From NCBI GenBank assembly GCA_020346285.1, contig CP070780.1, positions 1,113,021-1,177,020 of the forward strand: DNA of 64,000 nucleotides. Reading direction: 5' to 3'. Below the pieces are notes generated by a model that saw only the letters and a list, made by a program, of their open reading frames with translations, ran no database searches and was not told the origin of the DNA. This DNA is from Candidatus Omnitrophota bacterium (GTDB lineage Bacteria > Omnitrophota > Gorgyraeia > JABMRN01 > RBG-13-46-9). Shown piece after piece: positions 13,276 to 58,380 of this stretch; position 1 is the first letter of the stretch; each line of letters begins with the position of its first letter. Position numbers and translations under genes: made by a program.

Positions 13276-13290
13276 TTGATAGGATATAAA

Positions 13291-22549: not shown

Positions 22550-22590
22550 AAAGCAGAGATTTTTAATTGAAAAATTGGAGGGAAAAGTAT

Positions 22591-23562: not shown

Positions 23563-25762
23563 AAAAAAAATAAAGATAATCACGACACTAGGACCATCGA
23601 CGAACACCGAGAAGGATTTAAGAAACATAAAGGACAAAGGCGTTGATTTTGTACGAATCAATATGTCCCACTCCAATCTCAACGATTTAAAATATTTCAT
23701 AGATATTTCAAAGAAGATAGACATACCTTTTATCCTGGATACAGAGGGCTCGCAAATAAGGGCAGTTCAACTTGGCAGGGAAAAAATCGAATTTAAGGAA
23801 GGGGATATAATAAAAATTTATAATCGAACCATAGCAGAAAACAGGGAAAAGATATGCCTACAGCCGGGGTCTATTGTAGGGCAGTTGAAGAAAGGAGATC
23901 TGATATTCGTTGATTTTAATACGTTGGTCCTTAGGGTATCAGATATTTCTATGATTACCGACGGCTATATTTCCGCGATAGTTGTTACCAACGGAATGCT
24001 CGGAAACAACAAATCTGCTGTTATTGTTTCGGGAGAACAAAAACACTTTGGATTGCCCGTTTTAACCGAAAAAGACAGAAAATCTATTCAATTGGCTTTG
24101 AAAGAAGGGATAGGGCATATTGCCGTTTCTTTTGTAAGAAGGGGGAGGGACCTTGATGAGGTAAGAAAAACGACAAATAACACAATGCGTATCATCGCAA
24201 AAATAGAATCAAAAGAATCTTTGGAAAATATAGATGAAATAATTGAAAAAACAGACGCACTTTTGATTGACAGAGGAGATCTTGGTAAAGAGATTCCGAT
24301 TGAAAGAATACCCTTTATCCAGAAGGCTGTATTAAAAAAAGCGCACGAAAGACAAAAGCCGGTATTTATCGCAACAAACCTTCTCGAATCTATGGTTGAG
24401 AAGAAAAAGCCTACAAGGGCGGAAGTCAATGATGTTATAAATACCATTTTGGACGGGGCAGATGGCTTGGTTTTATCAGCCGAAACCGCTATCGGAAAAC
24501 ACCCCATGGGATGCATCAATATACTGAACAGGCTTATTAAATATTCAGATTCCGCAAGAAATCTTAACTATGTTAGTCGTTTTTCCGATTTTAGCACTGT
24601 TTCATTAATAAAACCGCATGGAGGCAGATTAATCGAAAGATTCGCCGATAAATTACCCGGCGATTCAGATAAATTGGTAAAAATAAAACTATCCGAAGAA
24701 CAGCAAATGGATGTTGAGCAGATTGCTGTCGGGGCATTTAGCCCTTTGGAAGGCTTTATGTGCAGAAATGATTTTCAGGGTGTCCTCGACAATATGCGGC
24801 TTGTAAGCGGGGTTGTATGGCCGATTCCAATCGTGCTTGATATTTCAAAAGAAGAGGCGAAAAAGATTTCTATCGATAATGAGGTAGCCTTAATCGGTGA
24901 TAAAGACGAAATTATGGCCATCCTTCATGTAAGGGATAAATACGATTTTGACAAAAAAGAGATAATAAATAAGTTATACTGCACGGACGACAAGAGGCAT
25001 CCCGGTGTAAAAATGGCAATGAAAATGAAGCCGATCTTAGTGGGCGGCGAAATTGATTTGGTAAAGAGAAGAGAGTCCGAATACAAGGAATATGAGCTTA
25101 CCCCAAGGCAGGTGCGAAAACTGTTCGAAGATCGAAATTGGATGAAGATTGCCGGTTTTCATACAAGAAACGCAATACACAGGGTGCATGAATTTATACA
25201 ATTAAAGGCGTTGGAAAAAGCGCATTGCGATGGGCTATTTATTCACCCTGTTATTGGAAAAAAGAAACAAGGCGATTTTAATATCAAATACATAATAGAG
25301 GCTTATAAAAAAATGATGAAAGATTTTTATCCAAAAGATAGCGTTGTCTTCGCAACATTTTCCACCTTTTCGCGATACGCGGGGCCTAGAGAAGCTATAT
25401 TTACTGCCTTATGCAGAAAGAATTTTGGATGCAGCCATTTTATTGTAGGAAGGGACCATACGGGTGTCGCGAATTATTATCACCCAAAGGCATCCCAACA
25501 GATTTTTGACAGATTTCCCGATTTGGAAATAAAACCCATAAAATTTGATAAAGTGTTTTATTCGAATAAACTTAACAAATATATTCATGGAAGTGACATT
25601 TGTAAAGAGGGGGATTTAGGAGAAGTGCATATAAACGCGACACAGGCAAGAAAGATGTTACAGGCCCTTGAAATGCCACCGGATTGGTTTATGAGGCCCG
25701 AAATAGCTTTAATAATTTTAAACGGACTAAAGAACAAGGAGGAAGTGTTTGTCAAAGAGTAA
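23546..25762 (+). CDS. fusion protein: pyruvate-kinase-like N-terminal domain + full ATP sulfurylase (sulfate adenylyltransferase)
   Basis: The first approximately 330 aa match pyruvate kinase blocks (IKIITTLGPST..E.L....KGVDFVRINMSHS; IAKIESKESLENIDEI...DALLIDRGDLG.EIP.ERIP..QK....K......PVFIATNLLESMV..KKPTRAEVNDV.N.ILDGADGLVLSAETA.GKHP). The remaining approximately 400 aa match ATP sulfurylase: the PUA-like segment HGGRLIER...LSEEQ..DVEQIAVGAFSPLEGFM, the HxxH motif GFHTRNAIHRVHE, and VGRDHTGV (GRDHAG). Confidence 0.8.
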   Translation: MDTRNRKKIKIITTLGPSTNTEKDLRNIKDKGVDFVRINMSHSNLNDLKYFIDISKKIDIPFILDTEGSQIRAVQLGREKIEFKEGDIIKIYNRTIAENREKICLQPGSIVGQLKKGDLIFVDFNTLVLRVSDISMITDGYISAIVVTNGMLGNNKSAVIVSGEQKHFGLPVLTEKDRKSIQLALKEGIGHIAVSFVRRGRDLDEVRKTTNNTMRIIAKIESKESLENIDEIIEKTDALLIDRGDLGKEIPIERIPFIQKAVLKKAHERQKPVFIATNLLESMVEKKKPTRAEVNDVINTILDGADGLVLSAETAIGKHPMGCINILNRLIKYSDSARNLNYVSRFSDFSTVSLIKPHGGRLIERFADKLPGDSDKLVKIKLSEEQQMDVEQIAVGAFSPLEGFMCRNDFQGVLDNMRLVSGVVWPIPIVLDISKEEAKKISIDNEVALIGDKDEIMAILHVRDKYDFDKKEIINKLYCTDDKRHPGVKMAMKMKPILVGGEIDLVKRRESEYKEYELTPRQVRKLFEDRNWMKIAGFHTRNAIHRVHEFIQLKALEKAHCDGLFIHPVIGKKKQGDFNIKYIIEAYKKMMKDFYPKDSVVFATFSTFSRYAGPREAIFTALCRKNFGCSHFIVGRDHTGVANYYHPKASQQIFDRFPDLEIKPIKFDKVFYSNKLNKYIHGSDICKEGDLGEVHINATQARKMLQALEMPPDWFMRPEIALIILNGLKNKEEVFVKE

Positions 25763-25779
25763 TAAAAAAATCGAGGGAC

Positions 25780-27519
25780 ATGAAGCTTTCTGATTATATA
25801 ACAAGATTTTTAGCAAAGCATACCAGACATGCATTTGTAGGAACCGGCGGTTGCATCGTTCATGTTCTTGATAGCCTGAATAAGAGTCCGCACATTCACT
25901 TGGTACCTTGCGAAAATGAACAGGGGGCTGCTATCGCGGCAGAGGCCTACTATAGAGTAAAGGGGAAGATAGGCGTTGCGATAGCAACAAGCGGGCCTGG
26001 AATGATTAATTTGATCCAAGGCATCGCATGCGCTTATTTTGATTCTACCCCGTCTTTATATATTTCAGGCGCACCTCCGACCTATCATTTAAAGGGTAAA
26101 CATAAAGTAAGGCAGATGGGTTTTCAAGAAATGGATGTTATAAAAATTGTTAAACCACTAACCAAATATGCTGTATTACTTACGAATCCTAAACGGATCA
26201 GATATGAATTGGAAAAATTAATTTATTCAGCCTTTGAAGGAAGGCCCGGGCCGGTATTATTAGATTTACCTGACGATATTCAGAGGGCGCATATTAATCC
26301 TCAAAAGTTAAAATCTTTTATTCCCAAAAGAAAAACTCCTACATTGAATAAAACGGCAATAAATAAAACAATGGGCCTTATCAAAAAAGCTGCCAGGCCC
26401 GTAATTATTGTCGGCGGCGGAGTAAAGACAAGAGACGTAAGAAAGGAATTAAAAACATTTTTAAACAAAAGCCGGATACCCTTCGCCACGACTTGGGCAA
26501 CCATAGATATGTTTTTGGATAATGAGCCTAATCTTATCGGCAATTTCGGCATATCTGCAAACAGGGCCGGAAATTTTGCCATCCAGAATTGCGATTTGCT
26601 TATTAGCCTGGGTTCTAGGCTGGATACGCATGGAGCAGGAAGCGATGTGGCCCGATTTGCGCCAAAAGCCAAAAAAATAGTTGTTGACATTGACAGAGCA
26701 GAATTAGATAAACATACTAGAATGAAAACAGATTTGAAAATTCATTGCGATTTAAAGACATTTTTAAAAGGCCTCATTAACTCTTCCGAGATAGAAACGA
26801 GGGACCTAAATCAATGGAAAAGAAAAATACAAGAATGGAAAGATAGGTACCCCATATACCTTGAGAAATATTATAAGCAGAAAAACAAAGTTAATCCTTA
26901 TGTTTTTATGAATGAACTGTCTAAGGAAACAAAAGAGGGGGATATCGTTGTTACAGAGACAGGAGCGACTTTGACCTGGACTATGCAGGCTTATAAAATA
27001 AGAACCCGGCAAGCTTTGTTCAGTGCATTCAACCATGCTTCGATGGGATATGCATTGCCCGCTGCTATCGGCGCTCAATATGCCGCGCCCGAAAACCGGG
27101 TAATATGCATCACAGGGGACGGCGGCATACAGATGAATATTCAGGAACTGGAGACAATCGCTTATAATAAGTTACCCATAAAGATTTTCTTAATTAATAA
27201 CAGGGGTTACGGAATGATCAAGCAGACCCAGGATACCTGGCTCGATTCCGTGTATGTGGCCTCGGACCCAAGTTGCGGGTTAGGCTTTCCGGATTTTCAA
27301 AAGGTCGCGAAGGCCTATAAAATAAAAACACTGCAAATCGCAAATCACGGTGAATTAAAAAAGATGATAAGGAAGGTTTTGTCCTATAAGGGGCCGGTTC
27401 TTTGCGACGTTAAATTAAGGCCCGGAGAGAAAATAATCCCTAAATTGGAATTCGGAAGGCCTTTAGAAGATATGTCCCCGTTATTACCGAGAAGCGAGCT
27501 AAAGGCAAATAGGCTTTGA
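25780..27519 (+). CDS. thiamine-diphosphate enzyme, acetolactate-synthase large-subunit-like (YerE-like carboligase candidate)
   Basis: The N-terminal Pyr domain reads GAAIAAEAYYRVKGKIGVAIATSGPGMINLIQGIACAYFDSTPSLYISG. There is a central domain and a C-terminal PP domain (ITGDGGIQMNIQELET). No small subunit is present. I prefer the ATG at 25780. Confidence 0.85.
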   Translation: MKLSDYITRFLAKHTRHAFVGTGGCIVHVLDSLNKSPHIHLVPCENEQGAAIAAEAYYRVKGKIGVAIATSGPGMINLIQGIACAYFDSTPSLYISGAPPTYHLKGKHKVRQMGFQEMDVIKIVKPLTKYAVLLTNPKRIRYELEKLIYSAFEGRPGPVLLDLPDDIQRAHINPQKLKSFIPKRKTPTLNKTAINKTMGLIKKAARPVIIVGGGVKTRDVRKELKTFLNKSRIPFATTWATIDMFLDNEPNLIGNFGISANRAGNFAIQNCDLLISLGSRLDTHGAGSDVARFAPKAKKIVVDIDRAELDKHTRMKTDLKIHCDLKTFLKGLINSSEIETRDLNQWKRKIQEWKDRYPIYLEKYYKQKNKVNPYVFMNELSKETKEGDIVVTETGATLTWTMQAYKIRTRQALFSAFNHASMGYALPAAIGAQYAAPENRVICITGDGGIQMNIQELETIAYNKLPIKIFLINNRGYGMIKQTQDTWLDSVYVASDPSCGLGFPDFQKVAKAYKIKTLQIANHGELKKMIRKVLSYKGPVLCDVKLRPGEKIIPKLEFGRPLEDMSPLLPRSELKANRL

Positions 27520-27542: not shown

Positions 27543-28214
27543 ATGAGTAGAGATTTAATTATAGCGGCTAAATGCGCCCCCCGGGAAGGGCATTTACGGG
27601 ATATTAAAAAAGCAGGATTGCAAGCAGTAGAGCTATATCTCTCGGAAGAGATTATGGAAAATCTGCCTAAGGTCATTGGACTGTGTAAAAAATTTCCATT
27701 TAGATATGCCGTTCACGCCCCTAATGCCGTATATAATCCGCGTAAATTAAGAAAATTGACAGAAGCGATCAATGCCGAAATAGCCGTTTTTCATAATGTT
27801 TATTGGGAGGATGAATGGAAGAGGGTCGCTAAAGCTTTTAAAGGCGTCAAGACTAAACTTTGCGTTGAAAATACATCTTCCACCCATGACTCGGTGAAAT
27901 TTATGAGAAGATATGGGTGGGGTAGGGCCCTGGATTTGGAACACGCGCAAATGGGATCTGCCGGTGTCTATGAAGAAGAGTTTATTACTGTTATGAAAGA
28001 GGCTGCCCATATCCACTTAACCGGTTACACCCATGGTTCGCAATTATGGCACACGCATATCCATCATTCACCGAGGCATAATTCATATTTATTGGATTTA
28101 TTAAGAAAAGCAAGATATTCAGGTTTTGTTGTCTCCGAAGCAAAAAAGTCACTCCAGACTTACGCAGAGTTTAAAAAGTTGAAAGAGTTTTATCAAAAAT
28201 GGAGAAATAAGTGA
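27543..28214 (+). CDS. xylose-isomerase-like TIM-barrel protein (sugar phosphate isomerase/epimerase family)
   Basis: 223 aa. The AVHAPN, ALDLEHAQ and HIHLTGY...HTHIHH segments resemble the metal-binding His/Glu/Asp pattern of the AP_endonuc_2/xylose-isomerase-like fold. This is a moderate-confidence call. Confidence 0.4.
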   Translation: MSRDLIIAAKCAPREGHLRDIKKAGLQAVELYLSEEIMENLPKVIGLCKKFPFRYAVHAPNAVYNPRKLRKLTEAINAEIAVFHNVYWEDEWKRVAKAFKGVKTKLCVENTSSTHDSVKFMRRYGWGRALDLEHAQMGSAGVYEEEFITVMKEAAHIHLTGYTHGSQLWHTHIHHSPRHNSYLLDLLRKARYSGFVVSEAKKSLQTYAEFKKLKEFYQKWRNK

Positions 28215-29072: not shown

Positions 29073-29759
29073 ATGCGAGAATTTAATGCGTTAAAGGGTT
29101 ATCCGCAACCGAAAGGGCCGCGTTATGTCGGAGCTGACATCAGAACAATTAAGAGCAGAATTATAGCTTCGTATCGCGATGAACGGTATTATGACGGAGA
29201 CCGCAACCACGGTTATGGAGGGTTTAAATATGACGGCCGATGGAAGAAAATAGCACAATCAATGTTTAAGGATTATGGGTTAACCGAGAACTCGGCCTTA
29301 CTCCAGATAGGGTGTGAAAAAGGGTTTCTCCTGCATGATTTTCATGAGCATTTCCCGAATATGAAAATTAGAGGAGCCGAAATGTCCGATTACGCTATTT
29401 CGCATTCCATGCCGTCGGTAAAAAAATGGATTGTAAAGATGGACAATTATACCAAGCTTCCCTTCGAAAGCGGAGAATTTGATTTTGTCATTGCTATAGG
29501 GGTAGTTTATGCCTTAACCTTAAGGGATGCTATATCTTGTCTTCGCGAAATTCAGAGAGTAGGAAAGGGCAAAAGCTTTATAACCCTGGGCGCTTATAAA
29601 GACGAACGGGGAGAAAAGCTTTTTAAGAGTTGGACGGTATTAGGTGCCACCATACTTCATGTAAATGAGTGGCCCGAGGTTTTAAAGGAAGCCCGTTACA
29701 CGGGCGATTATCACTTTATGACCGACGAATATCTAAATTTGGCAGAGAAAAACGGATGA
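29073..29759 (+). CDS. class I SAM-dependent methyltransferase
   Basis: Motif I is LLQIGCEKGFLLHDF. Motif II-like is EFDFVIAIGVVYAL. I prefer the ATG at 29073 after a GAGGGGG RBS. Confidence 0.7.
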   Translation: MREFNALKGYPQPKGPRYVGADIRTIKSRIIASYRDERYYDGDRNHGYGGFKYDGRWKKIAQSMFKDYGLTENSALLQIGCEKGFLLHDFHEHFPNMKIRGAEMSDYAISHSMPSVKKWIVKMDNYTKLPFESGEFDFVIAIGVVYALTLRDAISCLREIQRVGKGKSFITLGAYKDERGEKLFKSWTVLGATILHVNEWPEVLKEARYTGDYHFMTDEYLNLAEKNG

Positions 29760-30769
29760 AAAATCAGGATTTTTTAATAAAAATATTGGATAATAATAAA
29801 ATATTAAACCTAGAGTTTTATAAGAAATTATTTTTAATCAGAAGGAGTGAAGAGAAGATTATCGAGCTTTATCCTGAAAATGAAATGAGAATGCCAATGC
29901 ATATGTCTATGGGAGGAGAGGCAATAGCAGTTGGGGTTTGTCATGCTTTAGGAATAAAAGGCCAGGTTTTTGGAAGCTACAGATCCCATGCTATATATTT
30001 AGCTAAGACGCAAGATACGAATAATTTTTTTGCTGAGATATATGGAAAAACCACATCTTCATTAAAAGGAAAATGCGGCTCTATGCATTTGTGCGCACCT
30101 GATTTTGGGTTTATGGGAGCTTCAGCAATTGTAGCAAGTATAATTCCTGTAGCCTGTGGAACAGCTTTTGCAAATAAGAGAAAAAATAATGGTAAAATTG
30201 TTAGCGTATTTTTTGGAGATGGGGCCGTTGATGAGGGTAATTTTTGGGAGAGCTTGAATGTTGCCTCTCTTATGAAACTGCCGATTTTATTTGTCTGTGA
30301 AGATAACGCTCTTGCGGTTCATACTCCAAGGCACCAAAGGCAGGGTTATGATTCTATCGTTAGTATTGTCTCTAAGTTTAACTGTAATGTTCTTGAAGAG
30401 AGCACTACCGATACAGAAGTTATTTATAGAAAAACTTGCCAGGCTATTGAGTTAATTAGAACAACCCAGATGCCCTGTTTTTTGTATTTAAGATATTATA
30501 GGTACTTGGAGCATGTTGGTACTAAGGAAGATTTTGATGCCGGCTACCGCTCAAAAGAAGAATTTGAAAAATGGCATAAAAAAGACCCTGTAAATTTACA
30601 GAGGAAAAAGCTTTTAAGATTTGGGATAGAAGAAGAACAGATAAGAAAACTTGAAGTAGAGATAGAAGGTCGCATTGAGAACAGTATAAGGTTAGCCCAA
30701 AAAGCACCCTTCACTGAAATTAGCGAATTACACAGAGATGTCTTTTATGAAGAAAATAAGAAAGATTAG
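29756..30769 (+). CDS. thiamine-diphosphate-dependent dehydrogenase E1 component alpha-subunit homologue
   Basis: MHMSMGGEAIAVGVCHALGIKGQVFGSYRSHAIYLAK...; FFGDGAVDEGNFWESLNVASLMKLPILFVCEDNALAV is the TPP-binding GDG...N motif. The start overlaps the methyltransferase stop (ATGA). Confidence 0.8.
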   Translation: MKNQDFLIKILDNNKILNLEFYKKLFLIRRSEEKIIELYPENEMRMPMHMSMGGEAIAVGVCHALGIKGQVFGSYRSHAIYLAKTQDTNNFFAEIYGKTTSSLKGKCGSMHLCAPDFGFMGASAIVASIIPVACGTAFANKRKNNGKIVSVFFGDGAVDEGNFWESLNVASLMKLPILFVCEDNALAVHTPRHQRQGYDSIVSIVSKFNCNVLEESTTDTEVIYRKTCQAIELIRTTQMPCFLYLRYYRYLEHVGTKEDFDAGYRSKEEFEKWHKKDPVNLQRKKLLRFGIEEEQIRKLEVEIEGRIENSIRLAQKAPFTEISELHRDVFYEENKKD

Positions 30770-31799
30770 TTATTGTCAGGCATTGAATGAAGCAATGCGG
30801 CAGGAAATGGAAAGAGATCCAAATATATTTGTATATGGACTAGGTGTGCCTGACCATAAAAGAGTATTCACAACTACTGCGGGGTTGGTGGAGAAATTTG
30901 GTAAGGAAAGATGTTTTGATACCCCACTGTCTGAAGATACTATGACCGGGTTCGGATTGGGCGCGGCCATTAGCGGAATGAGGCCTATTCATATCCATAT
31001 GCGAGTTGATTTTCTTCTTCTAGCAGTAAATCAGCTTGCTAATATGGTTTCTAATTACAGATATGCAACAGCGGGGAAATTAAGAGTCCCTTTGCTAATA
31101 AGGGCTGTTGTGGGCAGGGGACGGGGACAATCTTTTCAGCATAGTAAGACTATGCATTCTATCTTTGCGCACATCCCTGGATTAAAAGTTGTTTTGCCCA
31201 CTACTCCCAGGGATGCCAAAGGGCTACTTATAGCAGCTATCAGGGATGAGAATCCAGTAATTTTTATAGAACATAGATGGTTATATTTTGCGGTTGACGA
31301 AGTTCCAGAACTACCATATACCATCCCTTTGGAAGAAGCTAATATTCTGCGTTCAGGCAGAGATGTTACAGTGGTGGCAACTTCGTGGATGAATGTAGAG
31401 GCCTTAAAAGCTGCACAGGTTCTTGAACGAAAGCACAAGATAAGCGTAGAAGTGATCGACGCCAGAATAGTAGCTCCCTTCAATGATAAGCTTATTGTTC
31501 ACTCCGTCAATAAGACAGGACATTGTATTGTGGCGGACAATGATTGGCTTGATTGCGGATTTAGTGCAGAAGTAGCTGCTCGAGTTTCAGAGAAGTGTTT
31601 CAGTCAATTAAAATCCCCTGTGCAGCGAATAGGATTTGCTCCCACTCCCTGCCCTTGCACAAAGTCTTTGGAGAATTGTTTTTATCCAAACGCAATTGAC
31701 ATTATAAAAACTATAGAATCAAAGTTAAACTTGGAAGAGGCAGATTTGTCTAATGAAGACTTTTATGGCTTTGAAAATAAGTTCAACGGTCCTTTTTAA
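30738..31799 (+). CDS. thiamine-diphosphate-dependent dehydrogenase E1 component beta-subunit homologue
   Basis: Transketolase-like Pyr domain (GFGLGAAISGMRPIHIHMRVDFLLLAVNQLANMVSNYRYATAGKLRVPLLIRAVVGRGRGQSFQHSKTMHSIFAHIPGLKVVLPTTPRDAKGLLIAAIRDENPVIFIEH) plus a C-terminal domain. Confidence 0.8.
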   Translation: MSFMKKIRKISYCQALNEAMRQEMERDPNIFVYGLGVPDHKRVFTTTAGLVEKFGKERCFDTPLSEDTMTGFGLGAAISGMRPIHIHMRVDFLLLAVNQLANMVSNYRYATAGKLRVPLLIRAVVGRGRGQSFQHSKTMHSIFAHIPGLKVVLPTTPRDAKGLLIAAIRDENPVIFIEHRWLYFAVDEVPELPYTIPLEEANILRSGRDVTVVATSWMNVEALKAAQVLERKHKISVEVIDARIVAPFNDKLIVHSVNKTGHCIVADNDWLDCGFSAEVAARVSEKCFSQLKSPVQRIGFAPTPCPCTKSLENCFYPNAIDIIKTIESKLNLEEADLSNEDFYGFENKFNGPF

Positions 31800-31832
31800 G
31801 TGGTAGTTGCGTTATAAAATTTTGAGGTGGTT

Positions 31833-32612
31833 ATGAATTTTGGTATTAGCGATAAAAGGGTTTTAGTCGTAGGAACCGGCAAGGGCATCGGGGGGGCTGT
31901 TGCAAGGGCTTTTGCGGCTGAAGGTTGCAGGGTGTCAATGGTAGCCCGTAATCCAGACACGCTAAAACAGCTTCTTGAGGAGATGGGTGGTCTTGAGAAA
32001 GGCCACAGGTTCCTGACGGCAGATTTGCTGGAAGCTGGTGCACCGACAAGAGTTGTAAAAGAGTTTTCGAGCGCGGATGGCCCATTTGATATAGTCGTCC
32101 ATAATGTAGGGGGCGCAATAACGCTTAAAGATCCTCTTGGTCCGGTTGAAGACTGGATGCGCGTATGGCGGTTTAATGTTGGCATCGCCATTGAGATGAA
32201 TGCCCTTTTGGTGCCACCCATGCGGAAACAAGGCTGGGGGCGGGTCATTCACATTTCGTCAATTTCCGCAGAGTTAGGAGAGCCGCGGCTGCATCCTTAT
32301 GGGGGTGCGCTTTCCTATGCGGCGGCAAAAGCATATCTCAACGTATATGTAAGGGGATTAGGCCGCGAAGTAGCAAAGGAAAATGTTATAGTTACTGCAT
32401 TGATGCCCGGACCGATTCTTTCCGAAGGAAAATACGTGGATAAGCTCCGTAAGACGAATCCTGAACTTATGAATAACTTCTTACGTCAACACTGCCCGAT
32501 CGGACGTTTCGGGATGCCTGAAGAGATTGCACCTTTCGCAGTCTTCATGGCCTCGGAGCAAGCCTCTTATGCCAGTGGTTCCATTGTACCGATCGACGGT
32601 GGAAGAATATGA
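31833..32612 (+). CDS. short-chain dehydrogenase/reductase (classical SDR)
   Basis: KRVLVVGTGKGIGGAVARAFAAEGCRVSMVARN is the TGxxxGxG motif. YGGALSYAAAKAY is the YxxxK motif. The C-terminus is YASGSIVPIDGG. Local GC is higher than in the flanks. I prefer the ATG at 31833 (GAGGTGG RBS). Confidence 0.85.
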   Translation: MNFGISDKRVLVVGTGKGIGGAVARAFAAEGCRVSMVARNPDTLKQLLEEMGGLEKGHRFLTADLLEAGAPTRVVKEFSSADGPFDIVVHNVGGAITLKDPLGPVEDWMRVWRFNVGIAIEMNALLVPPMRKQGWGRVIHISSISAELGEPRLHPYGGALSYAAAKAYLNVYVRGLGREVAKENVIVTALMPGPILSEGKYVDKLRKTNPELMNNFLRQHCPIGRFGMPEEIAPFAVFMASEQASYASGSIVPIDGGRI

Positions 32613-32630
32613 TAGTGTGGAAGAAAAAGC

Positions 32631-33848
32631 ATGGGAATATTGTCAAAAATCACTGATCTACTTTTAGGACAGCCGATGTTCAATCTTCTCCAGAAAGCTC
32701 AAAAAATGGAGATATCCGGAAGAAGAATCATTCACTATGAGATAGGCGATCCGAGCTTTGACTCTCCTCCCCATGCTATTGAAGCGGCAAAAGAAGCTCT
32801 CGACGCAAACTTAACGCATTATACAAGTTCCATGGGGCTTTTCGAATATAGAGAAGCGATTAGAGAATACACAAAGGCCAACTCTGGTTTTAAACCCTCC
32901 ATAGATCAGGTTCTGGCCTGCCCTGCTAATGCTGTGATTGATTTTGTTATACGCTGCACAGCTAATCCTGGCGAGGAGGTTATTTATCCCGACCCAGGTT
33001 TTCCTACTTATTATTCTGCTATTACTTATAATAAGGCGATACCAGTAGGTATTTTATTAAAGGAAGAGAATATGTTTCGGATGAGCCCTCGAGATGTCCA
33101 CGATAAAATAACCGATAAGACTAGATTAATTATCATTAACAGCCCCCAAAATCCTACAGGTGCTGTTTTGAAAGAAGAGGAGATTCTTGAATTTGCCAGA
33201 ATCGCGGAGGAACATGATATTTACCTCTTAAGCGATGAGGTCTATGCAAAGCTTACTTATGATAAAGCTCATTATTCGCCGAGCGTAAGAGATCAATGTA
33301 AGGCAAGAACCATTATTTTAAACAGTCTTTCGAAACAATATTCGATGGCGGGCTGGCGCTTGGGTTATGCTATCGGCCCTGAGAAACTAATAGAAAAAAT
33401 GGGATTACTTCTGCAAACAATAATCTCGTGTCTACCGGCCTTTACACAACTTGGAGGCAGGGCTGCGCTTCTGGGCAATCAAGAGTTTATGGATGCCAGG
33501 ATTGCCATGTTGAGAGAAAGGCGCGATATATTAACCGAAGGGCTTAATAAACTTCCCGGGGTCTCATGCGTTGTACCGGATGGGGCATTTTATGTTTTCG
33601 CCAATATAAGTAAAACTGGGATAACTTCAGAGGAATATTCAGAGAAACTTTTGCAAGAGACCGGTGTCTGTGTACTAGCCGGTAATTATTTTGGAAAAGG
33701 CGGAAGTGGATACATTAGATTATGTTATGCCAGTTCGCCGATCAGCCTTATTGAAGAAACGCTTGAGAAGATGAAAGAATTCCATGAAAAAATTGTTTGT
33801 AATTCTGGATTAGTTTGTTCTGGAGGGGAAAATGCAAAGACTTACTGA
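32631..33848 (+). CDS. class I/II (aspartate-aminotransferase-fold) PLP-dependent aminotransferase
   Basis: IIHYEIGDPSFDSPPHAIEAAKEALDANLTHYTSSMGLFEYREAI...; SLSKQYSMAGWRLGYAIGP is the Lys-containing SxSK..(A/G)..G.R.G motif. Confidence 0.8.
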   Translation: MGILSKITDLLLGQPMFNLLQKAQKMEISGRRIIHYEIGDPSFDSPPHAIEAAKEALDANLTHYTSSMGLFEYREAIREYTKANSGFKPSIDQVLACPANAVIDFVIRCTANPGEEVIYPDPGFPTYYSAITYNKAIPVGILLKEENMFRMSPRDVHDKITDKTRLIIINSPQNPTGAVLKEEEILEFARIAEEHDIYLLSDEVYAKLTYDKAHYSPSVRDQCKARTIILNSLSKQYSMAGWRLGYAIGPEKLIEKMGLLLQTIISCLPAFTQLGGRAALLGNQEFMDARIAMLRERRDILTEGLNKLPGVSCVVPDGAFYVFANISKTGITSEEYSEKLLQETGVCVLAGNYFGKGGSGYIRLCYASSPISLIEETLEKMKEFHEKIVCNSGLVCSGGENAKTY

Positions 33849-35520
33849 TTATATCGCTCAATTTCTTATCGGTCAAGGCGTTAGAGATATTTTTATGCTT
33901 ACGGGCTATGGTGCAATGTATCTCAACGATGCTATTGCCCTATCGGGTATTAACTATTATGCTTCTCGAAATGAAGCAGCAGCCCCTATGATGGCTGAGG
34001 CCTATGCTCGTGTGAAACAATCGTTGGGGGCAGTATGCGTAACAGCAGGCCCGGGAGCAACAAATGCGGTATCAGGCTTAGCGGAGGCTTGGGTTGATTC
34101 AGCTCCGATAATAGTATTTTCAGGACAAGTTACAAGGAGGCACACTACCCATAACGCCAATGTTCCAGGCCTTAGGACTTTTGGAACGGCTGAGATTAAT
34201 ATTGTACCGATTGTAAAAAACCTAACCAAATATGCCGCTGTCATCGACGAACCCACGTCGGTGCGTTATCATCTCGAAAAAGCCGTTTATTATGCTACCA
34301 CAGGTCGTCCCGGCCCGGTATGGCTGGATATTCCATTAGATGTCCAACAGGCATTAATTGATCCAAGCAGTTTAGATGGTTTTATACCGCCTAAAGAACG
34401 ATGGTTTAATACGAATCTGACCGCTGCTACTAATTCTGTTATTAAGTTGCTTTTACGCGCTAAACGCCCTGTCCTTGTATGTGGTCATGGTATTCGCCAG
34501 GGGGGTGCAATTTCTGAGTGGCGGAACTTAGTTGATTTGCTCAATATGCCAGTTATATTTTCACGCTTGGGCCTGGATTTGATGCCACATTCTCACCCGA
34601 ACGTATTTGGAATGGCGGGAATTAAGGGTTCACGTTACTGTAAGTTCCTCATGAATGAGGCGGACTTGGTGATTTCGTTAGGGTCTCGCCTTGCTGTACC
34701 CTTTGTAGGTCATGACTTAGAGGCTTTTGCGCCCGGCGCAAAGATAGTGATGGTAGATATTGATAAAGCTGAGTTAAGCAAGCCAGGCGTCCATATTGAT
34801 TTACCTATTCATGCGGACATAAAACCATTTACCCAGGAATTACTCAAGGCCATTGATAACGAAAAACTACCAGACTGGGGAGGGTGGATTGAGTCTTGTC
34901 GAGAACTCACTCGGAAGTGCCCCATATTATCAGCATCTCAAAAACGAAATCCAATCGACTTATACTATTTTATGTCACGGATTGATGCGCTTTCCCAAAA
35001 ACATCACATTCTGGTGACAGATGCCGGTTCCAATTATTATGTAGGAGGCCAGGTATGGCGATTCGAGAATGCTCGGCGTGAGATTACTTCATCTGCTTAT
35101 GCCGCCATGGGCTTGAGTATTCCACTTGCGATAGGTGCAAGCATCGCAGATAAAAAAAGCCAAGTCCTGGCTATTACAGGAGATGGTTCGTTAGAGTTAA
35201 ATATCCAAGAGCTTAAGACCCTATCCCATTATAATTTGAACATCAAACTGTTTGTTATTAATAACGGCGGCTATGTCTCAATGAGAAATTGGCAGGATAC
35301 TGTCTTTGAGGGGCGCCGTATCGACACGGAAGCAACGACCGGCGCCGGAACTTTAAATCTTAGGAAAGTAGCCGAGGCCTTCAATCTCGATTATTTAAAA
35401 ATTGAGAAACATGAAGAGATCGATGAAAAGTTGAAACAAGTGATGAGCAATGATTCTCCTATATTTGTAGAAGTAATTACTGATTATAACCAGAAAATAT
35501 TAGAGCCTTTCGATAGATAA
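33832..35520 (+). CDS. thiamine-diphosphate enzyme, acetolactate-synthase large-subunit-like (second copy)
   Basis: AAPMMAEAYARVKQSLGAVCVTAGPGATNAVSGLAEAWVDSAPIIVFSGQV; the C-terminal PP domain reads ITGDGSLELNIQELKT. It overlaps the upstream aminotransferase by 17 nt. Confidence 0.85.
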   Translation: MQRLTDYIAQFLIGQGVRDIFMLTGYGAMYLNDAIALSGINYYASRNEAAAPMMAEAYARVKQSLGAVCVTAGPGATNAVSGLAEAWVDSAPIIVFSGQVTRRHTTHNANVPGLRTFGTAEINIVPIVKNLTKYAAVIDEPTSVRYHLEKAVYYATTGRPGPVWLDIPLDVQQALIDPSSLDGFIPPKERWFNTNLTAATNSVIKLLLRAKRPVLVCGHGIRQGGAISEWRNLVDLLNMPVIFSRLGLDLMPHSHPNVFGMAGIKGSRYCKFLMNEADLVISLGSRLAVPFVGHDLEAFAPGAKIVMVDIDKAELSKPGVHIDLPIHADIKPFTQELLKAIDNEKLPDWGGWIESCRELTRKCPILSASQKRNPIDLYYFMSRIDALSQKHHILVTDAGSNYYVGGQVWRFENARREITSSAYAAMGLSIPLAIGASIADKKSQVLAITGDGSLELNIQELKTLSHYNLNIKLFVINNGGYVSMRNWQDTVFEGRRIDTEATTGAGTLNLRKVAEAFNLDYLKIEKHEEIDEKLKQVMSNDSPIFVEVITDYNQKILEPFDR

Positions 35521-35540
35521 CAAAATAGAGGAATTTCCCG

Positions 35541-36368
35541 ATGCAAGAAAAAGTGCAAATGCTAAAGAAAAAAGCAAGGTGGGTGCGAACCAAGGTTCTA
35601 AATACCATAGCCAGACTAAGAAAGGGTCATCTCGGAGGTACCTTATCCTGTACGGACCTTTTGGTGGCCTTATATTACGGGAAAATCATGAGATTCGATG
35701 CTGCTAATCCAAATTGGAGCGAAAGAGACAGATTTCTTATAGGGAAAGGGCATGCCCATCTTGCCTTATATTATATATGGACTGACCTCGGATTTTTTGA
35801 TGTTCGCAAATTAGAAGAATATGGAACCGACGGTAGCTCATTAGGTTTTCAACTCGATCGTAACATTCCGGGTTCAGAATATAATACAGGTTCATTAGGA
35901 CATGTGATTGGAATCGGAGCTGGAATGGCATTAGCCGCAAAGATGGATCGCAAGGCCTATAAGACCATTGTTCTTGTCGGTGATGGGGAATGTGATGAAG
36001 GTTCTATCTGGGAAGCGGTCATGTTTGCGAGCCGATATCGATTGAATAATTTAATGACCATTGTTGATAGAAATCAGGCAACAGTCATTGAAAATAGAGT
36101 GGAAGACGATGGTTCCGGGAGATTAGAGGAAAAGTTCAAAATGTGCGGTTGGGAGTCTATAACTATCAACGGGCACTCCTTTGAGCAGATACTGTCCGCT
36201 TTCACTGGATTGGAAAAATTCAATAGGCCCCTGGCGATAATTGCCGATACGGTGAAGGGTAAAGGGGCCTCTTTTTTGGAGCAAGGGGCTAAATGGCACC
36301 ATTTGGTTCCTTCTGCAGAAGAATTTGATAGGGTAATTAGGGAGTTTGAATTGGAGGCTGAAACGTGA
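35541..36368 (+). CDS. transketolase, N-terminal (TPP-binding) subunit of a split transketolase
   Basis: HLGGTLSCTDLLVALYY...; GSLGHVIGIGAGMALAAKMDRKAYKTIVLVGDGECDEGSIWEA is the GDG...E TPP motif. It is 275 aa. Confidence 0.85.
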   Translation: MQEKVQMLKKKARWVRTKVLNTIARLRKGHLGGTLSCTDLLVALYYGKIMRFDAANPNWSERDRFLIGKGHAHLALYYIWTDLGFFDVRKLEEYGTDGSSLGFQLDRNIPGSEYNTGSLGHVIGIGAGMALAAKMDRKAYKTIVLVGDGECDEGSIWEAVMFASRYRLNNLMTIVDRNQATVIENRVEDDGSGRLEEKFKMCGWESITINGHSFEQILSAFTGLEKFNRPLAIIADTVKGKGASFLEQGAKWHHLVPSAEEFDRVIREFELEAET

Positions 36369-37300
36369 AAAATGCAATTGATTTTAGAAATGCTTTTTTT
36401 GATAACTTATATGACATAGCTATAAAAAATAAGGAGGTTGTTTTCATAACATCTGATATGCCTGCAGAAAGCCTCGTCAAATACAATAAGGATTTCCCTG
36501 ACCGATTCATTAATAGCAGGGTTGCTGAACAGAACACGGTGAGTGTAGCAGCGGGGCTTGCACTAAGCGGAAAAAAAGTTTTCATTTATGGTATGTTACC
36601 TTTTGTAACAATGCGTTGTTATGAACAGATTAAGGTTGATATTTGTAGTATGAATTTACCCGTTACTCTTATAGGGCTGGGAGCAGGATTATCCTTTGAT
36701 GTGGATGGGCCAACCGCCCATGGAGTTATTGACATTGCTATTATGCGCTCACTACCTGAAATGACCATTCTCAATCCTTCCGACCCTATTACGGCATCTG
36801 CCTTTGCAGAAACTGCATACAGTAGTTGCACTCCCACCTATATTCGGCTGCACAAAGGTAGAACCCCATCTATTTATGATAATGCTACAGATTTCTCAGA
36901 TGGATTCTCTATACTTAAAAATGGCGATGATCTTTGTATTATTACAACAGGGGTCATGCTGCATACTGCTCTTCGCATAAGAGATGAACTAAAAAGGTAT
37001 TCTCTTGATGCGGGTGTTATTGATTTATATCAATTGAAACCAATTAAAGAAGACTTGTTCCTTAAAGCGTTAACTAACCATAAAAAAATAGTGACCATTG
37101 AAGAGCATTCACTTATTGGGGGACTTGGCAGTATCATCAGTGAAATCATAACCGACAATCAGCGGCCGATTTCACTCAAGCGCATTGCACTTAAAGATGA
37201 ACAGTGTTTTCATTATGGTAAGAGAGAGTGGCTACGCGAGGTGTATAAAGTTGATGCAGATAGTATTGTTAAGCAAATTATAGCATGGGAGAAGAAGTAG
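36365..37300 (+). CDS. transketolase, C-terminal (Pyr + C-terminal domain) subunit
   Basis: FITSDMPAESLVKYNKDFPDRFINSRVAEQNTVSVAAGLALSGKKVFIYGM... It is 311 aa and overlaps the N-terminal subunit by 4 nt. Confidence 0.85.
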   Translation: MKNAIDFRNAFFDNLYDIAIKNKEVVFITSDMPAESLVKYNKDFPDRFINSRVAEQNTVSVAAGLALSGKKVFIYGMLPFVTMRCYEQIKVDICSMNLPVTLIGLGAGLSFDVDGPTAHGVIDIAIMRSLPEMTILNPSDPITASAFAETAYSSCTPTYIRLHKGRTPSIYDNATDFSDGFSILKNGDDLCIITTGVMLHTALRIRDELKRYSLDAGVIDLYQLKPIKEDLFLKALTNHKKIVTIEEHSLIGGLGSIISEIITDNQRPISLKRIALKDEQCFHYGKREWLREVYKVDADSIVKQIIAWEKK

Positions 37301-37301: not shown

Positions 37302-38372
37302 ATGGGCCTTGTATATGCAAAAATGAAAATATTCCATTTTAAAGACAAAGTAGATTCTCTGTCAATAACAAAAGATGAAATATTGCCTCCCATACAGATA
37401 AGAATCAAACCGACGAATGTCTGCAATCATAACTGTTCCTATTGCTCATACAAGATAGATAACGTACAGATCGGTAAGGACATAGTGGCGAAGGACCGAA
37501 TCCCCAGGGAAAAGATGATGGAAATAATGGATGATATTATTGACATGCAGGTTGAGTGCGTTACCTTTAGCGGGGGAGGGGAGCCGTTCTGCTATCCTTA
37601 TTTGCTTGAGGCCGTTAAGAGGTTGTCCAGTACGCCTGTCAAATTCGCGACCCTGACGAACGGCTCAAAATTAGACGGAGAACTGGCAGAGGTCTTTGCC
37701 CACAAGGCCACATGGCTTAGGGTTTCCATAGATGGGTGGGATGACGAAAGCTATTCTGCCTACAGGGGCGTACCCAAGGGGGAATTCACAAAGGTAATCA
37801 GAAACATAGAGAATTTCAAGAAATATAGAGGAAAATGTTATTTGGGAGCCTGTATAGTTATCGATAAGAAAAACGCCTCTCATGTGTATGAATTGATAGC
37901 GCGGTTAAAAGATAGCGGTATTGACAGCGTCAAGATTGCGCCGTCTATTCTGAGTAATAGCAGTACGGAAATCAATCTATATCACAAACCCATATTTGAA
38001 CAAGTTAAAAGAGAAATTGCTAAAGCATCAGATGAACTTTCAGAGGAAGTGTTTGAGATATTCGACTCATATCATAGCCAGCTCGAAGGCTTTGAAAAAG
38101 GATATACCTGGTGCCCATATCTTCAGATATTGCCTGTTATCGGCGCAGACCTTAATGTATATTCCTGCCACGACAAGGCATATAATCTCGATGAAGGGCT
38201 TATGGGTTCCATTAAAAATCGCCGATTCAAAGATTTTTGGCTTTCGGACAAGAATAAATTTTTTAAAATAGACCCCTCTCGCCATTGCAACCACCATTGT
38301 GTGGTAGATATGAAAAATAGACTTATCCTGGACTATTTGGATGCAGATAAAGGACATTTAGGGTTTGTTTAA
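37302..38372 (+). CDS. radical SAM protein with SPASM/twitch-like C-terminal Cys cluster
   Basis: IRIKPTNVCNHNCSYCSY is a Cx3Cx2C motif. The C-terminus reads C.YLQ....YSCHD...RHCNHHC. Confidence 0.75.
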   Translation: MGLVYAKMKIFHFKDKVDSLSITKDEILPPIQIRIKPTNVCNHNCSYCSYKIDNVQIGKDIVAKDRIPREKMMEIMDDIIDMQVECVTFSGGGEPFCYPYLLEAVKRLSSTPVKFATLTNGSKLDGELAEVFAHKATWLRVSIDGWDDESYSAYRGVPKGEFTKVIRNIENFKKYRGKCYLGACIVIDKKNASHVYELIARLKDSGIDSVKIAPSILSNSSTEINLYHKPIFEQVKREIAKASDELSEEVFEIFDSYHSQLEGFEKGYTWCPYLQILPVIGADLNVYSCHDKAYNLDEGLMGSIKNRRFKDFWLSDKNKFFKIDPSRHCNHHCVVDMKNRLILDYLDADKGHLGFV

Positions 38373-38375: not shown

Positions 38376-40013
38376 ATGAAAAATAATATCAGAGTTCTTC
38401 TAATGACCTCTAAAAGCGATACCCGGGATTTCTATGTAGCCTCGGCGCCGCCACTGGGTTTGTATCGGTTGCAGCATTACATAGCCGGACGGGGAATTAA
38501 GTGTGATGTGTTGGATTTAGGCGTGCAGCGCGAATTAGAGGAAAAATATCTACGCATGGTTGAAGAAGGATTATACGATATCGTGGGCATGAGCGTTACG
38601 CACCGTAACATGATTCCGGAGCTCGAAACCATATGGAAGTTCCGTGTTGCCAGTGAAAAGAGTAAAAAAAGATGTCTATTTATAGCGGGAGGACAAGACG
38701 CGACACTTAACTACAAGCAGTGGCTAAATTCCGGAATTGACCTGATTTTATTAGGTTTTGCCGAAAAAAGTCTATACGAGCTTTGCCTACGGCTTTCAAA
38801 AGGGCAGCATATCGAAACAGGTAAAATGGTCGAAGGGATGGCCGGGTGCGCCGTTCGCAATAGTAATAACCAGATTATTTATCAGCCAAGCGAAATTCTT
38901 ACAGATTCAGAATTCAAGGAGTTTTCGTTTTCTCAGATTATGGAACTGGATATACCCTATGAAATTTACTGGAAAGATTTGGGCAAATTGGACACTGTTG
39001 CCAATTTTCATGAAAACAAATTTGTTGCAAAAACAGTCAGGCTTTATACAGCGAGCCATTGCCCCATGAATTGCGGTTACTGCAGTTCGCGCTCCTTTAT
39101 CCCCGAATCACAAAAGAGAAAGTCTCCGGTTTTTATGCTCTCGGCTTCCGAGGTTCATCAATTAATCGTGCATCACGTAAAAAAATACGGCGCCATGGGC
39201 TTTCTTTTCTGCGAAGACGATTTTATGATTGGGAGCCCGAAGGGAATACAGCGTGTAGTTGATGTATGCCGCCTAATTGCGAGGTCAAAGGAAGACGGCA
39301 CTATTCCAGAAGATACCCTTTTTAACTGTCAAGCGCGAATCGATGATTTTTTGATTAGGAAAGGCCCGAATAAAAAGGTTGTAAATTTGGAAGTTATGGA
39401 CGTTCTGAAGCGTGCGGGATTTCGTGGGTTCGGAATCGGCGTTGAGACATTTTCCGACAGATTGCTTAAGTGTAAGTCGGTTAACAAGTTTGCATACTCT
39501 TACCAGGACTCCCGTTTAGTGCTTGACAGTATGTTAGAAAAGGGACTAAACCCAACGATCAACCTCATATTGGCGATCCCTGAGTCCACGGTAGAAGATA
39601 TGGTTCACTCGATGGAGGTAGCCGTAGAGTATTTCGAGAAGGGATGTCAGATGGCGGTTAGTGCGTTAATGGATTCATTTCCAGGCTCGACGATTCACGG
39701 TACAAAGGATTATCCGGCAACGACGAAAGAATGGAAAAACCCTTATACCAAAGAGATTGTTTCTATCGATGATTACTTTATTCCTAAAAACGATAGGATA
39801 GCCAGTATTACGAGCCGGTTTAGAGAGGTATCCTCTGATGAGCTGGAGAAATTGAAAATTGATGCCTCATGGACGAATTCAGCCGTTCCTAAACCGATTA
39901 CCGGGCTATCTAATTTTATAGGCATTTCAAAATTGCTAGGGAAGCATGATCTGGCTAAGCGCTTCAGGGATGTAACCTACGAGGCATTATGCAAAGAGAC
40001 AATCTTTTCTTAA
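38376..40013 (+). CDS. B12-binding (class B) radical SAM protein
   Basis: The N-terminal domain has LFIAGGQDATLN (GG..T). The radical SAM motif is TASHCPMNCGYCSS. Confidence 0.8.
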   Translation: MKNNIRVLLMTSKSDTRDFYVASAPPLGLYRLQHYIAGRGIKCDVLDLGVQRELEEKYLRMVEEGLYDIVGMSVTHRNMIPELETIWKFRVASEKSKKRCLFIAGGQDATLNYKQWLNSGIDLILLGFAEKSLYELCLRLSKGQHIETGKMVEGMAGCAVRNSNNQIIYQPSEILTDSEFKEFSFSQIMELDIPYEIYWKDLGKLDTVANFHENKFVAKTVRLYTASHCPMNCGYCSSRSFIPESQKRKSPVFMLSASEVHQLIVHHVKKYGAMGFLFCEDDFMIGSPKGIQRVVDVCRLIARSKEDGTIPEDTLFNCQARIDDFLIRKGPNKKVVNLEVMDVLKRAGFRGFGIGVETFSDRLLKCKSVNKFAYSYQDSRLVLDSMLEKGLNPTINLILAIPESTVEDMVHSMEVAVEYFEKGCQMAVSALMDSFPGSTIHGTKDYPATTKEWKNPYTKEIVSIDDYFIPKNDRIASITSRFREVSSDELEKLKIDASWTNSAVPKPITGLSNFIGISKLLGKHDLAKRFRDVTYEALCKETIFS

Positions 40014-43238: not shown

Positions 43239-43332
43239 TATAACCCTGGGCGCTTACAGGGACGAACGGAGAGAAAGGAAACGATTGTCACTTTATGACC
43301 GCCGAATATCTAAATTTGAAGGAGAAAAACAG
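43239..43332 (+). pseudogene. relic of a methyltransferase 3' end (homologous to the end of the gene at 29073-29759), internally deleted
   Basis: 43239-43278 matches 29579-29618, and 43288-43332 matches 29711-29755, both at high identity. About 90 nt of intervening sequence is missing and no upstream gene body is present. Confidence 0.6.
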
Positions 43333-43383
43333 ATGAAAAGCCGGGATTTTTTACGAAAAATATTGGCAATGTTGACCATTCCC
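43333..43383 (+). repeat. 51-nt direct repeat (right copy), part of the functional gene start
   Basis: ATGAAAAGCCGGGATTTTTTACGAAAAATATTGGCAATGTTGACCATTCCC is the partner of 42393-42443. A related start (ATGAAAAATCAGGATTTTTTAATAAAAATATTGG) occurs at 29756. Confidence 0.7.
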
Positions 43384-56397: not shown

Positions 56398-56421
56398 AGC
56401 CATAAAGGATTTACTAAAGAA

Positions 56422-57423: not shown

Positions 57424-57426
57424 GCC

Positions 57427-58359: not shown

Positions 58360-58380
58360 AGAGGGCTTAGAGAATAAAAT

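Follow-up and report, generated by a model that had tools for sequence, protein, structure and literature searches.

A class I aminotransferase paired with a YerE-like lyase in a glycan locus of an Omnitrophota bacterium: a possible route to amino-acid-derived branched sugars

The 64,000-nucleotide stretch of Candidatus Omnitrophota bacterium contig CP070780.1 analysed here (positions 1,113,021–1,177,020 of assembly GCA_020346285.1; hereafter the window, numbered from its first letter) is, according to open reading frame (ORF) and Pfam scans, one very long glycan-biosynthesis locus with nearly all genes on the plus strand. Within it, a class I aminotransferase of the aspartate aminotransferase (AspAT) fold, encoded at 32631–33848 and hereafter called the AT, is followed by a thiamine diphosphate (ThDP)-dependent lyase whose gene overlaps that of the AT by 17 bp. 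The same two genes adjoin each other in nucleoside diphosphate (NDP)-sugar loci of other genomes. We propose, with confidence that stands about midway between doubt and conviction, that the genes between ∼29.7 and 38.4 kb form a glycan-tailoring cassette in which an amino acid is converted to a 2-oxo acid, the 2-oxo acid donates a C-acyl branch to an NDP-keto-sugar, and the resulting ketone is reduced.

In the first step of this proposal, the AT would deaminate an α-amino acid to the 2-oxo acid. The translationally coupled lyase, judging from its family and its context, would then decarboxylate the 2-oxo acid on ThDP, and the ThDP-bound acyl-anion equivalent would be added to the carbonyl of an NDP-keto-sugar to give a C-acyl branch on a tertiary alcohol. 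An NAD(P)H-dependent reductase would finally reduce the branch ketone in the manner of YerF and ErwF; the candidate is a short-chain dehydrogenase/reductase (SDR) in the window and another SDR or an aldo-keto reductase in sister cassettes. More speculatively, a 2-oxo-acid dehydrogenase E1α/β pair and a split transketolase (TK) encoded in the same block probably add acetyl or hydroxyacetyl (C2) units to the same or a related sugar. A broader version of the proposal is held more tentatively: that the AT belongs to a clade which feeds a YerE-like lyase and is widespread in uncultivated phyla, that the same cassette carries the E1α/β pair and the split TK, and that the products are amino-acid-derived, possibly multiply branched tertiary-alcohol sugars unseen in any structure.

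The aminotransferase and its partner lyase

The AT matches PF00155 with 218.4 bits (cutoff 19.7) over residues 37–380 and the DegT profile with 24 bits only. Among solved structures, those of the Pyrococcus horikoshii aromatic aminotransferase (ArAT), an enzyme of broad specificity, match it best (1DJU and 1GD9, E = 1e-73), with bacterial AspATs next. Residues N174, D202, Y205, K235 (within an SLSK motif), R243 and R363 align to the pyridoxal phosphate (PLP) and α-carboxylate positions of 1DJU and 1J32 and are invariant in 34 homologues. The AT keeps every residue required for transamination between α-amino and α-oxo acids, including Arg363 for the α-carboxylate. The fold and the catalytic residues are those of the Pyrococcus ArAT and the Thermus-type AspATs. 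These are housekeeping enzymes, whereas the window AT lies in a separate clade tied to ThDP lyases and scores below the cutoff of all 25 listed NCBIfam equivalog families (best PRK08361, 288.6 versus 624). Relatives with 55–72% identity are many and occur in several phyla; a scan of genome contigs seeded with idiosyncratic AT peptides returned two relatives only, at ∼25% identity. Homologues are mostly 371–400 residues long and cover 91–96% of the query. By inspection, the C-terminal ∼17 residues of the AT (…IVCNSGLVCSGGENAKTY, 33795–33848) are absent from homologues; this tail overlaps the lyase start.

The lyase encoded from 33832 has the acetolactate synthase (ALS) fold. Among solved structures it scores 339.8 bits with 8RPH, at most 235.6 bits with acetohydroxyacid synthases (AHAS) and ∼109–116 bits with keto-acid decarboxylases of the KdcA type, and it falls below the AHAS equivalog cutoff (TIGR00118, 369.5 versus 538.35). 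The 8RPH entry is JanthE, a ThDP lyase of the YerE-like group, which uses 2-oxo acids as donors and ketones as acceptors (PMC12188165; PMC12247030). JanthE, from Janthinobacterium sp. HH01 (8RPH/8RPI/8RPJ), is the best solved relative of both ThDP lyases encoded in the window (340 and 348 bits). The 33832 lyase keeps the catalytic Glu in NEAAA and the ThDP motif GDGSLELNIQEL...NNGGY. In an alignment of both window lyases and 11 AT-linked enzymes of other loci with JanthE and E. coli IlvB, all 13 glycan-locus enzymes keep the Glu that activates the cofactor as well as the GDG...NN motif; JanthE itself carries CDG where the window lyases have the canonical GDG. The JanthE-type insertion '...(L/V/x)R-x-[FWMYV]-G' (LRxxG) is likewise present in 13/13, at a place where IlvB reads 'GTDAFQE'. 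Measured against JanthE, the 33832 lyase is a probable member of the YerE-like group.

The second window lyase, encoded from 25684 with no AT next to it, scores 348 bits with 8RPH and at most 272 bits with unambiguous AHAS entries. Structure 5AHK, also deposited as 'acetolactate synthase II', lies between JanthE and AHAS at 312 bits; it is probably PpYerE, and no argument here depends on that identification. The domain match of this lyase starts at residue 33, and its true start is probably near 25.77 kb. It is the closer window relative of the AT-linked lyases in four other loci (L007, L011, L032 and L093).

The pathways to yersiniose and erwiniose provide the frame for these assignments. A 4,6-dehydratase, with 3-deoxygenation, yields an NDP-4-keto-sugar, YerE or ErwE adds the acyl group, and YerF or ErwF reduces the ketone; where the 2-oxo-acid donor lies outside central metabolism, it is made, in characterised and predicted clusters alike, by a cluster-encoded pyruvate aldolase such as ErwI, MMAR_2331 or MygI (PMC9306805). 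In the same work, Steitz et al. mention amino-acid transamination solely as a synthetic route to donors, and ErwE and MyGE are reported to accept 4-methylthio-2-oxobutanoate (PMC9306805). JanthE accepts C3–C6 2-oxo acids, among them 2-oxobutanoate, 2-oxovalerate and 4-methyl-2-oxovalerate, and also ketone acceptors. YerE-like enzymes hence take amino-acid-type 2-oxo acids in vitro, which supports the proposed cassette.

The window shares with the YerE/YerF, ErwE/F/I/J and MMAR_2331/2332 (caryophyllose) scheme (PMC9306805) an ALS-fold lyase in an NDP-deoxy-keto-sugar locus, a donor enzyme and a reductase, with its own distinctions. A class I AT is found in place of the pyruvate aldolase, and an amino acid would accordingly be the source of the branch; the lyase shares no more than ∼33% identity with its nearest characterised relative; the hosts belong to uncultivated phyla; and the cassette contains extra ThDP enzymes. 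We regard the YerE-type branching scheme with an AT as donor supplier, set inside a multi-ThDP cassette of uncultivated phyla, as the new element here. The searchable literature, which does not include the ThDP-cluster survey of Krug et al. 2024 (doi 10.1002/anie.202403535), yielded no paper linking YerE-like enzymes with an aminotransferase.

Conservation of the pair and of the cassette in other genomes

The adjacency of AT and lyase was counted in loci (given L numbers below) that had enough flanking sequence, with generic class I ATs from a metagenome scan with universal class I motifs as controls. Of the 14 loci with at least 46% AT identity, 12 have a YerE/ALS-like gene no more than 160 bp from the AT; below that identity the count is 2 of 63. 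In a neighbour-joining tree, the window AT and 13/14 of the other lyase-linked ATs fall into one clade. This single AT clade pairs with two distinct lyase subclades, the 33832 type and the 25684 type, which suggests that the pairing itself is under selection.

Gene tables were compiled for eight AT relatives and for L088, a locus reached via the SDR family. The same core is present in 8 of these 9 loci and runs [E1α/β or TK-N/TK-C], AT, YerE-like lyase, (B12-binding radical S-adenosylmethionine (SAM) enzyme), TK-N, TK-C, [SDR or aldo-keto reductase], where TK-N and TK-C are the two subunits of a split TK. Around it lie genes for NDP-sugar dehydratases, epimerases, RmlC-like isomerases, GHMP kinases and nucleotidyltransferases, and its carriers include metagenome-assembled genomes (MAGs) of another Omnitrophota bacterium, a Margulisiibacteriota, a Syntrophobacteraceae and a Patescibacteria member as well as a Sterolibacterium-like contig. 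L088 repeats the window order of SDR, AT, lyase, two TK genes, methyltransferase and radical SAM enzyme, with identities to the window of 64% for the SDR, 64% for the AT, 54% for the lyase and 62% for the radical SAM enzyme. NDP-sugar genes accompany the lyase in L003–L006, L009, L012, L088, L091 and L093. The minimal cluster is that of L009, composed of a Wzx-type flippase, a nucleotidyltransferase, an NDP-sugar 4,6-dehydratase, the AT, the lyase and an epimerase/reductase. L012 contains a 4,6-dehydratase, a 439-residue DegT-family protein, the AT and a lyase divided between two ORFs (4727–6480; near-duplicate in L013), one with the N and M domains (336 residues) and one with the C domain (248 residues). 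Both clusters follow the plan of the yersiniose and erwiniose pathways.

No aldolase is listed in any of the eight AT–lyase loci with gene tables (0/8). Because the known clusters contain a donor-making aldolase, the AT appears to stand in the aldolase's place. Every cassette carries a reductase, as would be expected of a required ketoreduction step, yet these enzymes are not homologous to each other: the window and L088 have the 259-residue SDR family, L003, L006 and L091 a different 260-residue SDR, and L004 and L005 an aldo-keto reductase. In L004 and L005, a conserved gene of ∼251–252 codons without Pfam match lies 3′ of the aldo-keto reductase.

The window SDR gene starts at an ATG preceded by an AGGTGG ribosome-binding site, and its product matches adh_short (113 bits) and adh_short_C2 (125 bits) and displays the Gly-rich NAD(P) and YxxxK motifs (VGTGKGIG, HNVG and YAAAK). 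It belongs to a 259-residue family of its own with 55–75% internal identity and shares only ∼30% identity with the SDRs found in L003, L006 and L007. Family members precede AT, lyase and TK in L088 and the split TK alone in L089 and L090. In L005 and L006, E1β abuts the AT with no SDR between. Since the SDR family travels without AT and lyase, and L005 and L006 do without it, the AT and the lyase form the constant pair and the SDR is a module partner. The SDR is probably either a ketoreductase for the branch ketone or an oxidase that creates the acceptor ketone. The SDR–TK pair of L089 and L090 lies in a heptose-type activation module, which comprises a SIS/GmhA-like gene, an HldE-like fusion of PfkB and cytidylyltransferase domains and a zinc-dependent alcohol dehydrogenase; where this module accompanies the SDR family (L088–L090, ∼1–10 kb per locus), an ArgZ-like_C protein is also found. 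The module is not present in the window itself.

These comparisons bear on an earlier note, made from the window sequence alone, which had described the AT as a class I/II enzyme of the AspAT fold distinct from DegT and flanked by a classical SDR and an ALS-like gene. Profiles (PF00155 at 218 bits versus 24 for DegT) and motifs agree with this description. The note had also suggested 2-oxo-acid chemistry directed at an unusual side chain; such a role is more plausible than a housekeeping one, and the nearest homologues (46–68% identity) support it by their position in glycan loci (12/14). An unusual acyl group remains the expectation; its proposed form, an N-acyl group on a nonulosonic acid, gives way to the C-linked acyl on a keto-sugar that a YerE/JanthE-like lyase predicts. 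Similarly, the AT does go with the ALS-like gene as the note had it, with the difference that the tight unit is AT plus lyase and the SDR is exchangeable, and the block is larger than described, extending from E1α/β through the radical SAM enzyme (29.7–38.4 kb).

Three ThDP classes that branch keto-sugars are distinguished in a 2025 review, namely YerE-like lyases, stand-alone E1α/β and split-gene TKs (PMC12247030), and all three lie side by side in the window block. E1α/β is encoded without E2 or E3, no lipoyl, E2 or E3 family being found among the scanned window ORFs, and TK-N and TK-C are separate genes; both occur within a sugar-tailoring cluster. The E1 genes score under the pyruvate dehydrogenase equivalog cutoffs, and the best PDB match of E1α reaches only 124 bits. 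The E1_dh match of E1α begins at residue 53, and the true start is probably 3′ of the listed GTG. E1α is 58–59% and E1β 64–66% identical to its counterpart in L005 and L006. In L003–L006 and L091, the subunit encoded next after the lyase has 57–61% identity to the window TK-N, and TK-C has 50–55%. The radical SAM enzyme at 37302 is 62% identical (489 bits) to the one 3′ of the TKs in L088. E1α/β of the α-KADH2 type adds C2 units from pyruvate; split-gene TKs are uncharacterised, and all 13 predicted ones come from Streptomycetes clusters (PMC12247030). The window arrangement resembles α-KADH2 of aldgamycin, avilamycin and kibdelomycin (KbDH) and the split TKs proposed for miharamycin and amipurimycin (PMC12247030) in that a stand-alone E1 and a split TK lie near sugar genes. 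Those systems belong to actinomycete antibiotic clusters, whereas the enzymes considered here have a YerE-like lyase as neighbour and come from surface-glycan loci, in Omnitrophota as in other phyla. No paper on split TKs in polysaccharide loci was found in the literature searched.

Alternative explanations

Several observations weigh against the amino-acid-fed branching pathway. Gene adjacency leaves the direction of transamination unset. The adjacency itself has a Fisher p of 2e-10, which overstates the significance because the loci are not independently sampled, and two clade members, L010 and L092, have no lyase neighbour; in L092, a Phycisphaerae MAG, the AT adjoins an amino-acid permease in a non-glycan context. 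The 33832 lyase is only ∼33% identical to JanthE (32.7%, versus 28.7% to E. coli IlvB), the YerE-like enzyme with which it was compared and one known by its in vitro substrates. The SDR family is also found without AT and lyase in L089 and L090. The window does contain a 4,6-dehydratase-like gene (16006), a nucleotidyltransferase (18195) and an epimerase (28211), none of which adjoins the lyase. The evident 4,6-dehydratase and nucleotidyltransferase lie ∼15 kb upstream of the AT–lyase pair and so do not define the acceptor sugar.

The SDR, the AT and the ThDP enzyme could instead make a free unusual amino or hydroxy acid that is ligated as an N-acyl group to an amino sugar or nonulosonic acid. 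Such a product would suit the window, where two NeuB proteins, two CMP-transferases, several DegT proteins and a FemAB/GNAT-like transferase are encoded, and in L007 an ATP-grasp ligase directly follows the trio. Most AT–lyase loci (L003–L006, L009, L091 and L093), however, have no NeuB or ligase near the pair and always have NDP-sugar dehydratases or epimerases, the window block contains no acyl-activating enzyme, and the ThDP enzyme groups with ketone-accepting lyases; we consider N-acylation unlikely. A slightly lower probability is given to an AT that acts after branching and aminates the branch ketone to a 1-aminoalkyl branch, as in the kibdelomycin sugar. The AT gene does lie among branching enzymes, and transamination is among the known fates of branch ketones, next to reduction, methylation and oxidation (PMC12247030). 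A branch ketone is nevertheless no α-oxo acid, and the AT keeps Arg363 and is nearest to amino-acid transaminases; the cassettes also carry a reductase for the same ketone, and the clade member beside the amino-acid permease is not in a glycan locus at all. Sugar and ketone transaminations are normally catalysed by DegT or class III enzymes, and DegT genes are present separately in the window.

The AT might also serve one of the other ThDP enzymes, for instance by turning serine into hydroxypyruvate, which the split TK would use as an irreversible donor, or by supplying E1α/β. The AT has TK or E1 neighbours in the window, L003–L006, L088 and L091, and a few distant ATs stand beside TK-like genes (L020, L046 and L078), but its constant neighbour is the lyase, and the AT–lyase pairs of L007, L009, L011, L012, L032 and L093 have neither a TK nor an E1 gene, which makes this option improbable. 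The same verdict, a little firmer, applies to an Ehrlich-type route in which the AT, a ThDP decarboxylase and the SDR produce an aldehyde or alcohol as a non-sugar substituent with no carboligation. The order of the Ehrlich pathway is transaminase, 2-oxo-acid decarboxylase and reductase, and the gene order in the window formally matches it. The first two steps of the proposed branching pathway, transamination and ThDP-dependent decarboxylation, are also those of the Ehrlich pathway; the difference is that the ThDP intermediate would be captured by a keto-sugar and not protonated to a free aldehyde. The window ThDP enzyme is far nearer to carboligases (JanthE 340 bits, AHAS ∼235) than to KdcA-type enzymes (∼109–116), and the SDR is no constant partner. 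The chance presence of a housekeeping aspartate aminotransferase and acetolactate synthase in a glycan locus is very improbable. The best NCBIfam names are indeed aspartate aminotransferase and acetolactate synthase large subunit, and L092 shows a clade member outside glycan loci. The NCBIfam scores are far under the cutoffs (288.6 versus 624 and 369.5 versus 538), the glycan-locus adjacency holds in 12/14 across phyla, and no ketol-acid reductoisomerase or dihydroxyacid dehydratase family is present among the scanned ORFs of at least 150 residues.

Four further candidates were rejected. Phosphonate biosynthesis (phosphoenolpyruvate mutase, decarboxylase and AT) was dismissed as no phosphoenolpyruvate-mutase family is found among the scanned ORFs. 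The route from cysteate through sulfopyruvate to sulfoacetaldehyde was considered given the nearby ATP sulfurylase and sulfotransferases; it fails as a general explanation, the other AT–lyase loci having no sulfur genes and the Xsc models scoring far below cutoff. A GntC-like cyclodehydratase scores 287 against an NCBIfam cutoff of 415, and 8FFT, presumably GntC, gives 84 bits against 251 for ArAT. The C–S lyases PatB, MalY and cystalysin reach 80–95 bits only.

Yersiniose, erwiniose, caryophyllose and other acyl-branched sugars are rare and difficult to detect by chemical means, and the present 'unifying scheme' predicts them from clusters with a YerE-like lyase and an aldolase. If the AT does supply the donor for branching, the sequence rule for branched sugars widens and amino-acid-derived branches become predictable. 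AT–lyase pairs would then be ready two-enzyme cascades from amino acids to chiral tertiary alcohols, and candidate branching by split TKs and E1α/β would extend to the surface glycans of Omnitrophota, Patescibacteria and Margulisiibacteriota, about whose cell envelopes very little is known. The pathway would be of moderate interest to glycobiologists and ThDP enzymologists.

Gene content and base composition of the window

The genes around the AT follow the order E1α/β, SDR, AT, lyase, split TK, radical SAM enzyme, B12-binding radical SAM enzyme and DegT (Table 1). Within the block, intergenic gaps measure 1–33 bp or the genes overlap. Promoter-like and terminator-like matches in the block are not enriched over shuffled sequence, and an Rfam scan gave nothing informative.

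Table 1. Genes of the cassette, the second lyase and the radical SAM genes of the window.
Feature	Position	Strand	Accession or Pfam match
Stand-alone 2-oxo-acid dehydrogenase E1α (α-KADH2 type)	29669–30769	+	Pfam E1_dh
E1β subunit	30738–31799	+	Pfam Transket_pyr, Transketolase_C
Classical SDR, 259 aa	31833–32612	+	GenBank UCD54964.1; Pfam adh_short, adh_short_C2
Class I (AspAT-fold) PLP aminotransferase (AT), 405 aa	32631–33848	+	UCD54965.1; PF00155
YerE/JanthE-like ThDP-dependent lyase (ALS fold), 562 aa, probable	33832–35520	+	Pfam TPP_enzyme_N, M, C
Split TK, N-terminal (ThDP-binding) subunit	35541–36368	+	Pfam Transketolase_N
Split TK, C-terminal (pyrimidine-binding + C) subunit	36365–37300	+	Pfam Transket_pyr, Transketolase_C
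Radical SAM enzyme, 3′ of split TK	37302–38372	+	Pfam Radical_SAM
Second YerE/JanthE-like ThDP lyase, no adjoining AT	25684–27519	+	Pfam N, M, C domains
Radical SAM genes	1603–3039(−), 12214–13275, 15015–15989, 21161–22549, 37302–38372, 38376–40013, 41265–42374, 46280–47272, 49656–51158, 54952–56397		Pfam

The window as a whole looks like a mosaic of modules that are found separately elsewhere. Its nonulosonic-acid-type genes comprise two NeuB and two CMP-transferase-type genes (9014 and 47272). The NeuB at 10366–11241 is short (291 residues) and without a SAF domain, whereas that at 59058–60062 (334 residues) has the SAF domain and is followed by a UDP-GlcNAc 2-epimerase. Five DegT genes are present where the earlier note had counted six, and two of the five are short or partial: 6300–7307 looks truncated, matching profile positions 4–251 of 360 only, and 57427–58359 scores 56 bits over only ∼100 residues. 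A FemAB-like/GNAT (Acetyltransf_6) protein at 56422–57423 is a candidate aminoacyl transferase that could add amino-acid substituents to the glycan.

Ten radical SAM enzymes are encoded in the 64 kb, five B12-binding, four with SPASM and one plain. So high a density is unusual in a glycan locus and suggests that sugars are extensively C-methylated or tailored by other radical chemistry. Next to a sulfotransferase, a 738-residue fusion protein joins a pyruvate-kinase barrel to PUA-like and ATP-sulfurylase domains (22567–23562 and 23546–25762), and another sulfotransferase-like gene is found towards the 3′ end (61256–62494); the ATP-sulfurylase fusion and the sulfotransferases suggest that the glycan is sulfated. 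We know of no description of a fusion between a pyruvate-kinase barrel and ATP sulfurylase. Five ORFs of 223–656 residues have no Pfam match (13276–14973, 19360–21150, 27543–28214, 43285–44505 and 51158–53128).

Base composition gives no evidence that the block was acquired separately. By eye, the earlier note had put 31.8–36.4 kb at ∼50% GC against ∼35% in the flanks and had taken this as a hint of separate acquisition; calculation gives 43.8% for that block against 39.6% for the window. As fractions, the values are 0.396 for the window, 0.438 for 31800–36400 and 0.409 and 0.428 for its flanks. The excess over the window is ∼4 points, and no 4.6-kb stretch of the window exceeds the block by more than 0.002 (the maximum, 0.440, begins at 30801). 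The sole GC outlier of the block is the SDR gene (0.503, z = 3.0), with 0.60 and 0.44 at codon positions 1 and 2 and a third-position value (GC3) of 0.466 (z = 1.3). The AT and the ALS-like gene have GC3 values of 0.362 and 0.385, no higher than the window mean (0.398). The G+A+R+P fraction is 0.34 in the SDR and averages 0.216 (maximum 0.267) in its neighbours, and in three other genomes the SDR homologues likewise lie 4–6 GC points above their respective loci. Because the SDR excess lies at codon positions 1 and 2, the protein is rich in G, A, R and P, and the homologues behave alike, the GC bump is largely a matter of protein composition; a foreign origin of the block from GC or GC3 was rejected. 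Real compositional shifts lie elsewhere: genes at 56400–64000 have 31–37% GC (z down to −2.5), and three minus-strand genes at 1603–4977 have 42–45%.

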